Origin: an uncultured Candidatus Bathyarchaeia archaeon
Lineage (GTDB): Archaea > Thermoproteota > Bathyarchaeia > 40CM-2-53-6 > DTGE01
NCBI GenBank assembly: GCA_964346575.1
Contig: CAYFVN010000234.1
Coordinates: 1-57,051 of the forward strand
Direction of reading: 5' to 3'
DNA: 57,051 nucleotides
In this document: positions 17,027 to 44,081 of the stretch, in pieces
Position numbering within the stretch: the first letter of the stretch is position 1
Layout of the letters: each line of letters opens with the position of its first letter
Program-made: the position numbers and the translations under genes
The notes under the pieces: model-generated
Told to the model about the DNA's origin: nothing
Database searches by the model: none
Seen by the model: only the letters and a program-made list of their open reading frames with translations

Positions 17027-17088
17027 AAATTACGGTCAATCGCGCCGCTAAATATTGCGAGCGCTATTTTTAAATTTTCTATATTTGA

Positions 17089-17199
17089 TGGGGCGGGCGG
17101 GATTTTCATGGTTTATTAGCCGTTTTGAACCCGCGATCTCCGACTTACCCTCCAACGGACCCGAGGCCGGGATCTTAGACCAAACTGGACCACCGCCCC
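17089..17199 (-). tRNA. tRNA-Pro (anticodon CGG) with two introns (canonical 37/38 and T-loop)
   Basis: Manual fold: acceptor GGGGCGG/CCGCCCC, discriminator A, anticodon stem CCGGC/GTCGG, loop CU-CGG-G then a 14-nt insert (17146..17159). The T stem GCGGG/CCCGC encloses 28 nt instead of 7, implying a ~21-nt intron at about 17103..17123. No encoded CCA. AT-rich TATA-like TTTTTATTAAA lies about 21-31 nt upstream (17220..17230). Confidence 0.8.
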
Positions 17200-17953: not shown

Positions 17954-20188
17954 TTGAGTAGATTGAAGCGTTTGGAGGGGATGAGCTCTAAAATACTCGA
18001 CGCAGCCTCCTCATCTGTTCGCTTAAGCATTCTAAGATTGTTATCACATAAGGGGCAACTTCAATACACCGAGTTGATGTTCGCCGTGAACCTTGACCCA
18101 GTGAGAGATGCAGGTAAATTCGTTTACCATCTAAAGAGTTTAATAGACGTAGGTCTGCTCAAGCTTGACAAGAAGAGTAAGAAGTACTCATTAACGGAGT
18201 TAGGAGAGATAGTCGTAAAGTTCTCAAGAGACTTAGAAGAGTACTTGGCAGTAAAGAAGGGGAGGCTCTTCGTAAGGACATCGAAACTCGCCATTGAAGA
18301 GTTCGACAGATCGAAGATAGTAGATAGTCTAGCTAGAGAAGCAGGAGTACCCTTAGAATTAGCTAGAGATATAGCTGCTGAAGCTGAGGATCGTCTGATG
18401 AACACTAAAACGAGACATCTCACAGCACCTCTAATAAGAGAGTTCATAAACTTCCTTCTACTAGAAAAGGGGTTAGAGGAGTATCGTCATAGGCTGACTC
18501 GTCTAGGCATGCCCGTGTACGATGTAACCCAAGTCATCGAGGAAACTGGAAGGAGAGGCTCACCAGTATCCGCAGTGAAAGAGGCCGCCAGCTCCTCAGT
18601 CCTAAAAGAATATGTACTGCTTAAAGGCGTCCCAAGAGAAGTAGCAGATGCACACCTCTCCGGACTAATACACATAGACACAGCGGAGAGCTGGCTGCTC
18701 AAGCCTGAATCTATATCCTATGACCTGAGATCCTATCTAATTTCACCAGATCAGGTTAGGAAGATCCCTGATGACCTAAATGGCGTATTGAAGCTACTTG
18801 AGAAGATTTATAGGCGATCTACAAATGAAGTTACCAGCGGTGAAGTCCTTCCATTCCTAAACCTGATTCTTGCACCTTTTGTGGCGGGTTTAGAAATTAA
18901 TCTTGTAGAGAAGCTTCTAAGGATTTTCATCGAGGATTTGAATGAAGAGGCGCTTATCAATCCATTCACGCCTAGAGTCTCTATAGGCGTTTCTTTGAAG
19001 CTTCCTAGAGAACTCGAAAGTGAATCAGCCCCAAACCCTAGGGGGGAAGATACTACATATGGAGACTTTCATGAAGAAGCTGTTTTGTTGGCCTCCATCA
19101 TATTGAAGCAAGCCTATAGAATATCCAGTAGGATGCCTCTACTCAACCCATTATTGACTGTAAAGTTGAAGGGTGGAGATGAAGAATCGCTGGAGACTCT
19201 CAGCGCTTTAGAGGCTGCACATGGATCCATATATCTAGATTTTACGGGAGATACTGAAGCTGTATACCATGGAAATGGCATCCGCCTCTGCACAGGTTGG
19301 TCCGGAGATTGGCATGCAGACATCTTGAGGACAGGTCAGGCTGGAACTGTATTTCTGAACCTGTCTAGGATAGCTCTTGAGTCTAGAGGAAACTTCGAGC
19401 GTTTTAGGAAGATCTCAGACGACGCTGTACGATTGGCTGTGGAAGCACTAAAGGCTAAAAGGGCTTCCTTAATCGAGCATCTTCGTGGTGGACTTCTTCC
19501 TACTTTAAAAAGCTTTAACTTCTCAGTAGAGGATTCTCAGTATGGAATAGGGATACTAGGATTAAGTGAGGCTGCTTCCATCTATGCTGGATCCGCTATA
19601 GGTACAAGCGATAAGGCTTTGGAATTCTCCCTTAAAATTTTGAAATATCTAAGCGAGTTGACTTCTGCATCGTCCAAAGAGTTGGATATGCGTATAAATC
19701 TCGTACAGAAACCATGTGAAGAAGGTAGTTCACGCTTAGCCAAACTAGACTTGGAATCCTTTGGTAGGGGAGCCACGAAGTTTCAGGGTCTTAAAAGCAA
19801 CCCATACTACACTGATGTGCCTATAATACCTTCAAAATCGAATGTGCCTCTAGAAGCTCGAGGAGAGCTTGAAGGAAAGTTTCAACAGTACCTTGATGGC
19901 GGCCACCTATGCCTTTTCCGACTATCCGAAGCTGAGCCCAAAGCAATTGGGAGATTCTCTGCTAAACTTGAGTCTATGGATATACGCTTCGCAACATATT
20001 CCAAAGAGTTATCACACTGCAAAGCGTGTATGACCTTGACCCAAGGGCTTATACAAATATGTCCTATATGTGGATCGTCGTCGATTCAACGATATGGAGC
20101 TTCGTCGGCTCTGCTTAAACCTCTAAAGATATGGCCTTCTTCAAATGTTAAGGAGATGGATGAATGGGTTAGATATCCCATTAAGTAA
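17954..20188 (+). CDS. nrdD: class III (anaerobic) ribonucleoside-triphosphate reductase NrdD homolog with N-terminal wHTH and ATP-cone
   Basis: ArsR-like wHTH (LSILRLLSHKGQLQYTELMFAV...YSLTELGE), then an ATP-cone (LFVRTSKLAIEEFDRSKIVDSLAREAGVP...). NrdD-like blocks follow: RLCTGW...GQAGTVFLNLSRIALE, KPCEEGSSRLAKLD, PYYTDVPIIP and a C-terminal Zn ribbon CKAC-x12-CPIC. The glycyl-radical region reads IQRYGASS rather than RxxGY. Confidence 0.7.
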   Translation: MSRLKRLEGMSSKILDAASSSVRLSILRLLSHKGQLQYTELMFAVNLDPVRDAGKFVYHLKSLIDVGLLKLDKKSKKYSLTELGEIVVKFSRDLEEYLAVKKGRLFVRTSKLAIEEFDRSKIVDSLAREAGVPLELARDIAAEAEDRLMNTKTRHLTAPLIREFINFLLLEKGLEEYRHRLTRLGMPVYDVTQVIEETGRRGSPVSAVKEAASSSVLKEYVLLKGVPREVADAHLSGLIHIDTAESWLLKPESISYDLRSYLISPDQVRKIPDDLNGVLKLLEKIYRRSTNEVTSGEVLPFLNLILAPFVAGLEINLVEKLLRIFIEDLNEEALINPFTPRVSIGVSLKLPRELESESAPNPRGEDTTYGDFHEEAVLLASIILKQAYRISSRMPLLNPLLTVKLKGGDEESLETLSALEAAHGSIYLDFTGDTEAVYHGNGIRLCTGWSGDWHADILRTGQAGTVFLNLSRIALESRGNFERFRKISDDAVRLAVEALKAKRASLIEHLRGGLLPTLKSFNFSVEDSQYGIGILGLSEAASIYAGSAIGTSDKALEFSLKILKYLSELTSASSKELDMRINLVQKPCEEGSSRLAKLDLESFGRGATKFQGLKSNPYYTDVPIIPSKSNVPLEARGELEGKFQQYLDGGHLCLFRLSEAEPKAIGRFSAKLESMDIRFATYSKELSHCKACMTLTQGLIQICPICGSSSIQRYGASSALLKPLKIWPSSNVKEMDEWVRYPIK

Positions 20189-27104: not shown

Positions 27105-27250
27105 TGGTGGGCCGGCCCGGATTTGAACCGGGGACCCTTCAGCCCTCCTCTTCTTTGATGAGGGTTTCTGCGTCTCCTGGGTTGGCTACTTGTCAGGCAG
27201 ATGTCCTAATTATTCCATCATTTAGGATGTCCAAACTAGACGACCGGCCC
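27105..27250 (-). tRNA. tRNA-Val (anticodon GAC) with three introns (D-loop, anticodon loop, variable region); CCA encoded
   Basis: Manual fold: acceptor GGGCCGG/CCGGCCC, A, CCA. D stem GTCT/GGAC encloses 31 nt, implying a ~21-nt insert at 27208..27228. Anticodon stem TCTGC/GCAGA with loop CU-GAC-A and a ~18-nt insert at 27173..27190. A ~29-nt insert at 27138..27166 precedes the variable loop GGGTC. T arm CCCGG-TTCAAAT-CCGGG. TATA-like TTAATAAT lies 18-25 nt upstream (27268..27275). Confidence 0.8.
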
Positions 27251-34844: not shown

Positions 34845-35221
34845 TCACATCCACCTCCATCCATGTCATACACGAACATTTAAACGATGTTAAATAAGCG
34901 ACGTTATAAAACCTCACTCTTAAAGTTTTCTATATCATGAAACATTTCATAATCCAATCACGCGTATAACTAATTTCAAAAATAACACAGAATTAGATTT
35001 TAATTATAATCTCCATGTTTAATTTTTATACATAAATGATAAAGCTATTTCCTTGAAGTATCGGTCCAGAACTCCATTCCTAGATCGTGACATGTCTACT
35101 CCAGACATGTGAGGGCAAACATCGGGAGAATGAGTATAAAGGTAAACATATACTCAACTCTAGGAATAGAGGTAAAACAACCGTGTAGATATCATTTAAT
35201 GTATTAAGGTGATGTTGTTAT

Positions 35222-43894: not shown

Positions 43895-44081
43895 GGGCCC
43901 GTAGCTCAGCCAGACCCAACGTCCACTCCTACGGGCTGAATGGTGGGCGTGGATCCTGAAGAGGTAGAGCAGCGGACTTCGAAGCCTGACGAGGGGAGGC
44001 TGAAGCTCTTAACCCGAAAGGACGGTGTTGAGGCATCGCCCTGGGGAGAGGTCCGGGGTTCGAATCCCCGCGAGCCCGCCA
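43895..44081 (+). tRNA. tRNA-Lys (anticodon CUU, best manual fold) with three introns; CCA encoded
   Basis: 5' GGGCCCGTAGCTCAGCCAG ... GGTAGAGC (D arm split by a ~49-nt insert, 43914..43962). Anticodon arm GCGG|G-CTCTTAA-CCCGA is split by a ~29-nt insert (43976..44004). A ~31-nt insert (44018..44048) precedes AGGTC. T arm CGGGG-TTCGAAT-CCCCG, then CGAGCCC-G-CCA. Two non-WC pairs (C5.A68, G27.A43) lower confidence in the isotype. Confidence 0.7.

Follow-up and report, generated by a model that had tools for sequence, protein, structure and literature searches.

A tRNA-Pro(CGG) gene of a Bathyarchaeia archaeon with probable introns in the anticodon loop and the T-loop

Can a tRNA gene whose T stem encloses 28 nt be functional, and how would its transcript be processed? 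The question is raised by the minus strand of a 57,051-nt contig (C234; the whole of this stretch of DNA is called the window) from a Bathyarchaeia metagenome-assembled genome (MAG) of 1.50 Mb in 328 contigs, which is ~67% complete and has 44.9% G+C. An earlier note on this DNA had read a tRNA-Pro(CGG) gene here, with a canonical intron of 14 nt after G37 and an intron of ~21 nt in the T-loop near 59/60. We consider it very probable (roughly 93%) that the locus is a functional Bathyarchaeia tRNA-Pro(CGG) gene, whose 111-nt minus-strand precursor contains two protein-spliced introns. The anatomy of the sequence, the perfect cloverleaf that excision restores, the conserved and covarying motif in positional orthologs and the occurrence of the enzymes in the lineage are shown below. 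That the gene is transcribed, and that its transcript is cleaved at exactly these bonds, ligated and aminoacylated, is what we infer.

Structure and identity of the gene

The features of the gene are listed in Table 1. The coordinates, strings and lengths given in the earlier note were exact on re-reading of the minus strand, and the T stem GCGGG/CCCGC indeed encloses 28 nt (6 + 21 + 1). The 5' part of the gene reads GGGGCGG-UG-GUCC-AGUUUGGUCUA-AGAU-C-CCGGC-CUCGGG[uccguuggagggua]A-GUCGG-AGAUC, and the 3' part reads GCGGG-UUCAAA[acggcuaauaaaccaugaaaa]U-CCCGC-CCGCCCC-A (inserts bracketed). The acceptor strand GGGGCGG is followed by U8 and G9. The D arm GUCC/AGAU has a 13:22 C.A mismatch and an 11-nt loop with A14 and G18G19, and C26 precedes the anticodon stem CCGGC/GUCGG. 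The three exons are colinear within 111 nt; thus, the gene is neither split nor circularly permuted. According to the spacing of archaeal promoters, the A/T-rich box upstream of G1 is a candidate TATA box for pre-tRNA-Pro. CCA is not encoded by the window copy, in which TCA comes next (17086-17088). The CCA after the discriminator is encoded in many Pro(CGG) orthologs (loci L002, L004-L007, L009 and others) and is absent in some others, as in the window.

Table 1. Positions of the tRNA-Pro(CGG) gene and its parts in the window
Feature	Position	Strand	Description
tRNA-Pro(CGG) gene, whole	17089..17199	(-)	G1 = 17199, discriminator A73 = 17089; 111 nt, spliced 76 nt
Exon 1, 40 nt	17160..17199	(-)	acceptor 5' strand, D arm, anticodon stem 5' strand, loop C32-G37
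Anticodon C34 G35 G36	17163, 17162, 17161	(-)	within exon 1
Intron 1, 14 nt, UCCGUUGGAGGGUA	17146..17159	(-)	canonical 37/38 site; relaxed BHB
Exon 2, 22 nt	17124..17145	(-)	A38, GUCGG, variable loop AGAUC, T stem GCGGG, T-loop U54-A59 (UUCAAA)
Intron 2, 21 nt, ACGGCUAAUAAACCAUGAAAA	17103..17123	(-)	59/60 in T-loop; strict 3-4-3 BHB core
Exon 3, 14 nt	17089..17102	(-)	U60, T stem CCCGC, acceptor CCGCCCC, discriminator A73
A/T-rich box TTTTTATTAAA	17220..17230	(-)	21-31 nt upstream of G1; sequence inspection

ARAGORN in its default mode found no tRNA anywhere in the 57-kb window, and neither the default nor the -i mode, run on the window and the genome, gave a call at 17089-17199. No match at the locus was obtained with Rfam, at the gathering score or at E<=10. 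When both inserts were excised, ARAGORN called a 76-nt tRNA-Pro(cgg) with a canonical cloverleaf, in which all four arms, U8, A14, G18G19, U33, G37, UUCAAAU and A73 are present. The anticodon is CGG, and G1-G4 are paired with C69-C72. The sequence CUCGGG is kept in 23/23 Pro(CGG) orthologs. Rfam at E<=10 gave no ribozyme family either, and the inserts are only 14 and 21 nt; thus, they do not qualify as self-splicing group I or II introns.

Acceptance by ARAGORN was dropped as the sole filter of excisions, as it was too permissive and gave many contradictory isotypes; therefore, explicit cloverleaf scoring was used together with decoys. [quoted passage not shown] The top parse was Pro(CGG) with introns at 37/38 and 59/60 at a score of 55.5, against 40 for the runner-up and at most 29.5 for decoys with shuffled interior (n = 12). 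Intronless tRNAs of the same genome score 56-59, and the spliced tRNA-Pro scores about 56. The Pro(CGG) identity proposed earlier is thus borne out by the 76-nt call after excision and by the top parse. In the window sequence alone, runs of A make excisions from 56/57 to 59/60 yield an identical product. The site of the second intron was fixed at 59/60 because of the BHB register and of orthologs whose introns end in ..tg, ..ag and ..cg, and the expected T-loop intron was thereby confirmed at 21 nt.

ARAGORN accepted several other excision combinations and, once the T-loop insert was removed, its -i mode proposed a tRNA-Thr(CGU) with an anticodon-loop intron at 34/35. Every alternative of this kind lies at least 15 points lower in the cloverleaf scoring, most orthologs have no GU at the place required for Thr(CGU), and only the order CGG-G37, intron, A38 fits all 23. 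The GGGGCGG acceptor, A73 and G37 also fit archaeal tRNA-Pro and would be identity elements for its ProRS. A different exon structure or identity therefore has next to no chance of being correct. With regard to other genes for the same codon, no second tRNA-Pro gene was recovered in the MAG (~67% complete), which thus cannot show the window copy as the only Pro(CGG) decoder.

BHB motifs and orthologs of the two introns

In the T-loop intron, A58 A59|A and A A|U60 form the two bulges. U54U55C56A57 (17129-17126) and UGAA (17108-17105; intron nt 16-19) make up the central helix with all four pairs, and the outer helix is the T stem of 5 bp. The inner helix h' of the window copy consists of two G-C pairs beside a C.A mismatch, where relatives have U-A. 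The boundary thus shows the BHB geometry, with H 4/4, h 5 bp and h' 2 bp after the mismatch. In the anticodon-loop intron, the central helix is formed with an AGGG tract (C32-G, U33.G and C34-G) and contains a G35xA mismatch (H 3/4); because of this mismatch, the BHB is a relaxed form. Its outer helix is the anticodon stem (5 bp), and its inner helix is CC/GG (h' 2). Positions 32-35 are paired with the intron tract in 22/23, 23/23, 19/23 and 13/23 orthologs, and the conserved partner of C32-U33-C34(-G35) is an AGGG, AGAG or CGAG tract before the last two intron nucleotides. This pairing is the normal BHB central helix. The 14-nt intron after G37 stands, and the pairing of its CCG with the CGG anticodon, which had been suggested along with it, is rejected because the hairpin loop would be 2 nt and because the pairing is not conserved (C34 and intron nt 4 are paired in 3/23 orthologs).

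These motifs suggest the following pathway. The precursor would present each intron in a BHB motif using the adjoining exon helix as the outer stem, namely the anticodon stem for the 37/38 intron and the T stem for the 59/60 intron. In the T-loop, the universally conserved U54-U55-C56-A57 would pair with the UGAA that lies close to the intron's 3' end, so that each cut would fall after the second nucleotide of the 3-nt bulge. The endonuclease EndA, most likely an alpha-beta heterotetramer tolerant of non-canonical sites, would cut both bulges of each motif. Then RtcB would join the three exons, and the CCA-adding enzyme would add CCA, giving a standard 76-nt tRNA-Pro.

The unconstrained MFE fold of the precursor contains the stems and small inner hairpins, without the A/U-rich 4-bp central helix, and its z of -1.3 is uninformative. 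The central helix of a BHB is usually absent from MFE folds. The same fold shows a large T-loop with a 2-bp hairpin, which would agree with an insert that stays in the mature tRNA, either enlarging the T-loop or forming an extra arm. A T-loop of 28 nt, however, would destroy the elbow between the T-loop and the D-loop. Moreover, the conserved feature is the 3-4-3 BHB geometry that marks EndA sites and not a stable extra arm, the length varies from 12 to 24 nt, and orthologs of other families have a plain 7-nt loop. Retention of the insert is extremely improbable for these reasons, and its removal as an intron is preferred.

Covariation was analysed in 39 distinct T arms with a 59/60 intron, which belong to Pro(CGG) and to the second tRNA-Pro, Glu(CUC) and Trp(CCA) genes of relatives. 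The extra T arms were found through the intron by BLAST, and the second tRNA-Pro has the acceptor GGGGCAG and, where readable, the anticodon GGG. All these introns are built as a-[h' stem]-loop-[h' stem]-UGRR-nn. Pairing of the central helix is seen in 36-39 of the 39 T arms, and the h' positions are paired in 37/39, 36/38, 32/37 and 28/35 with 4-6 pair types each. In total, 133/149 h' cells are paired, compared with 93 +/- 3.7 in column shuffles (maximum 107, n = 2000), and when the 3' partner is slid by one base, the pairing collapses at most positions. This covariation is the strongest evidence that the T-loop insert is a structured and selected element, i.e. an intron.

The interrupted T arm and acceptor were searched for in 185,579 species genomes using the pattern GCGGGTTCAAA-N8-38-CCCGCCCGCCCC. 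Among the 20 matches, 14 are Ca. Bathyarchaeota/Bathyarchaeia MAGs and six are bacterial; the latter are taken to be chance matches, about as many as the complexity of the pattern predicts. A BLAST search against 40 relatives of the same order gave near-whole-gene matches including both inserts, with 78-84% identity, in 13 genomes of the families f1, f2, f4 and f9, and a partial match in one further genome. T-loop-interrupted Pro(CGG) genes amount to 21 distinct ones (the window copy and 20 others in Bathyarchaeia MAGs). The site is always after UUCAAA and before U60, and the insert is 12-24 nt long. Two orthologs, in G019 and G037 (families f7 and f10), have no T-loop insert and show a plain UUCAAAU loop; these score 47.8 and 50.5 bits as tRNA in Rfam, which does not call the window copy.

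At most ortholog loci, the tRNA-Pro gene is flanked by genes for an FAD-dependent oxidoreductase (68-89% amino-acid identity) and an NrdD-like protein, as in the window, and the oxidoreductase neighbour is present at 21 of the ortholog loci compared. The genes are thus positional orthologs, and their T-loop intron is an inherited one. This intron is old, with vertical descent within at least four families, and in others it has been lost or was never gained. The ortholog in G003 (L011, G003:C2:~35056-35196) has a third intron of 36 nt in the D-loop, and its T-loop intron is cut to 12 nt, giving a bulge-helix-loop form without the inner helix.

The locus could also be a decaying tRNA pseudogene, disabled by a 21-nt T-loop insert that is not spliced. 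The rejection of the locus by the standard finders and the weak inner helix of the window copy are in line with decay, and another Pro(CGG) gene could exist since the MAG is incomplete. Against this, the insertion is at the same bond in 21 distinct genes of at least four families with conserved synteny, and the exons are nearly invariant, with the intron interior changing by compensatory substitutions. A BHB motif and perfect exons would not be kept in a pseudogene. We therefore regard decay as very unlikely, and a functional gene with two spliced introns remains the preferred reading.

tRNA introns and splicing enzymes in the genome and its relatives

The survey of the MAG covered T arms, uninterrupted or interrupted, with a downstream acceptor strand able to pair with a 7-mer further upstream, and the tRNA-Lys(CUU) gene of the window, which has one acceptor mismatch, was added separately. 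The resulting counts are estimates by our own heuristic, with uncertain exact boundaries for C33, C198 and the 36/37 intron of Val: 25 tRNA genes are recognisable, 21/25 are interrupted and ~15 have two or more introns. One intron is found in ~6 genes, two in ~9 and three or more in 5 or 6; the four intronless genes are Asp, Met, Arg-UCU and Val-CAC. In the 24 resolved genes, 40 introns were counted (1.67 per gene). Their median length is 21 nt, and about one in four lies at 37/38. Except for one gene on C228, the other 20 interrupted genes parse in the same way as tRNA-Pro. In the decoy test, the real scores (55-63.5) exceed every decoy (<=54) in 17/18 distinct interrupted genes, the exception being again C228; the His, Trp and Lys-CUU genes (153-191 nt) were too long for this test. 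The earlier note had read each of the three tRNA genes in the window as split more than once and had suggested that this is a property of the whole genome. Both statements hold, with two introns in Pro, three in Val(GAC) and three in Lys(CUU), and with the numbers of the census, which had been proposed as a check. It had also called T-loop introns near 59/60 rare, which is not the case in this lineage. The genome has three of them, i.e. those of Pro, Phe(GAA) (22 nt at 59/60) and His(GUG) (27 nt at 58/59), and in relatives 59/60 introns also interrupt Pro(GGG), Glu(CUC) and Trp(CCA) genes.

Several of these genes deserve description. The tRNA-Val(GAC) gene of the window (27108-27250 (-), 143 nt) has introns of 21 nt in the D-loop, 18 nt in the anticodon loop and 29 nt in the variable region, with a solver score of 60.5 against a decoy maximum of 50. 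In the tRNA-Lys(CUU) gene (43895-44078 (+), ~184 nt), CCA is encoded at 44079-44081, the acceptor has the mismatch C5xA68, and the best parse gives introns of 50 nt in the D-loop, 29 nt at 30/31 and 31 nt at 43/44; ARAGORN -i mislabels this gene as Val(cac) with a 97-nt intron. Outside the window, the tRNA-Trp(CCA) gene of the same genome (G000:C233:1186-1376 (+)) has four BHB introns, at 10/11, 28/29, 37/38 (69 nt) and 45/46. Its ortholog in G034 (L052, G034:C1:69670-70230) has a fifth, which is 22 nt long and lies at 59/60 in the T-loop within a perfect BHB, and both genes splice to the same kind of 74-nt tRNA. Two tRNA-Asp(GUC) genes are present in the MAG (G000:C5:694-768 and G000:C82:381-486), only one of which is interrupted, by a 34-nt D-loop intron. 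A few exon positions differ between the two, and they could be a true duplicate, strain heterogeneity or the result of a mis-binned contig. The exceptional gene (G000:C228:3479-3628 (+)) is tRNA-like and 150 nt long; its acceptor (GCGGGGG) is of the Leu type and its T arm is intact. The strict 3-4-3 BHB solver gives no parse of it that beats the decoys, and its motifs may be relaxed or its introns nested.

An archaeon is expected to have roughly 46 tRNA genes. Among the relatives G001-G040, the Rfam tRNA model finds only 10-30 genes per genome even where the genome is at least 90% complete, and because of this the richness in tRNA introns looks order-wide.

Genes with an EndA domain were found as two paralogs in each of eight relatives, a strong one (92-101 bits) and a weak one (35-56 bits). 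The strong paralog of G005 (187 aa) has its best match in chain B (186 aa) of the Aeropyrum pernix enzyme (3P1Z_B/3AJV_B, E about 1e-47) and also resembles the Sulfolobus and Pyrobaculum chains. The divergent weak paralog (194 aa) is similar to other EndA chains and bears a faint resemblance to Sen54, a structural subunit of eukaryotes. The matched A. pernix chains are labelled simply "tRNA-splicing endonuclease"; we take 3P1Z and 3AJV to be alpha-beta heterotetramers with chain B as the catalytic subunit. The pair of paralogs suggests that the EndA of this lineage would be of the alpha-beta heterotetramer type. This type is tied to non-canonical and multiple introns (PMC4090602, PMC4033280, PMC5829648). 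In the MAG of the window itself, no EndA gene was found, which says little because that MAG is only ~67% complete; RtcB is present in it (G000:C110:1144-2454, 581.8 bits).

The introns were also compared with each other for a transposition-like spread within the genome, a check proposed in the earlier note, and the result was negative. In the all-against-all local alignment of the 40 introns of the MAG, the best score was 22, compared with a mean maximum of 18.2 and a highest value of 22 in shuffles, and no look-alike of the Pro T-loop intron was seen among them. Between genomes, a consensus a-UGGC...GCCA-UGAA-aa is common to the 59/60 introns found in Pro, Glu and Trp genes, and the Glu intron in G009 is ~76% identical to the T-loop intron of the window. 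Common descent of the 59/60 introns through transfer between tRNA genes is plausible from this resemblance, and no more than plausible because the UGAA strand is dictated by the T-loop sequence itself and the h' stem may reflect a structural preference.

Comparison with other intron-rich archaea

Multiply interrupted tRNA genes are a known kind; what is new is the lineage, most of whose tRNA genes are interrupted in this manner. The tRNA-Pro gene alone brings no new mechanism, and its splicing is ordinary for intron-rich archaea. In the case of the Thermoproteales (Pyrobaculum, Thermofilum, Caldivirga), short BHB introns also occur at canonical and non-canonical sites with several per gene (Sugahara 2007/2008 and Fujishima 2010, reviewed in PMC4033280 and PMC4090602), the EndA is of the alpha-beta type that is suggested for the present lineage, and the genes are likewise missed by simple tRNA finders. 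Their tRNA genes have 0.84 introns on average, with a record of 71 introns in 46 genes (1.54) in P. calidifontis (PMC8450103), and reviews give up to three introns per archaeal tRNA gene (PMC4033280). The genomes studied here, in contrast, are Bathyarchaeia from mostly mesophilic soil and sediment MAGs. That of the window has an estimated ~1.7 introns per gene and four introns in Trp, whose counterpart in a relative has five, and it shows no sign of recent intron transposition.

The intron-rich Asgard archaea are similar in that most genes are interrupted, over half have several introns, up to five occur per gene and standard software under-calls them. In Asgard lineages known since 2024, 92-95% of tRNA genes are interrupted with ~2.2 inserts per gene, many of them in the T arm, and five introns in one tRNA gene have been reported only there (PMC11291895; bioRxiv 10.64898/2026.10.13.758758). 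T-loop introns are common in these archaea (bioRxiv 10.64898/2026.10.13.758758). The present lineage, however, belongs to the phylum Thermoproteota/TACK, so its accumulation of introns would be independent. In the circularly permuted tRNAs of Thermofilum pendens and Cyanidioschyzon merolae, the same 59/60 bond and a BHB on the T stem are used (PMC3218864), but the 3' half lies upstream of the 5' half, whereas the tRNA-Pro gene is colinear with an ordinary intron. Ca. Caldiarchaeum subterraneum (TACK) and other crenarchaea share the non-canonical D-, V- and T-arm introns, although the load in Caldiarchaeum is lower, with 13/45 genes interrupted and three having several introns (PMC3293823). In the literature searched, no report of such tRNA introns for Bathyarchaeia was found, and the load in this group is apparently order-wide and unpublished.

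One consequence concerns Bathyarchaeia MAGs: quality criteria that rely on tRNA genes, and conclusions about codon usage, are biased, with systematically low tRNA counts, because Rfam finds 10-30 genes and ARAGORN finds none of the three in the window. Intron-aware tools or curation are needed for these MAGs. Another is that a third intron-rich archaeal lineage, with positional orthologs differing in the presence, length and number of introns, offers material on the gain and loss of BHB introns, a question left open by the most recent Asgard study (bioRxiv 10.64898/2026.10.13.758758).

On balance, we lean slightly towards the view that the Bathyarchaeia, at least as a whole order, are an undescribed and independent hotspot of introns, and that in addition one old 59/60 family was spread by transposition or gene conversion. 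At ~1.7 introns per gene on average and four to five in some individual genes, the load would then match the record Thermoproteales and Asgard families. The 59/60 family would now reside in Pro(CGG), Pro(GGG), Glu(CUC) and Trp(CCA), and the near-identical T arms would have been its route. If this is true, the syntenic Pro(CGG) locus would record dated steps of intron gain, change in length and loss.

The arrangement of FAD-oxidoreductase, tRNA-Pro and NrdD genes is syntenic across the order. In the window, the last of these (17954-20188 (+)) encodes a homolog of the class III (anaerobic) ribonucleotide reductase NrdD, in which an N-terminal winged-helix domain (DUF7347/HTH_45) precedes the ATP cone.
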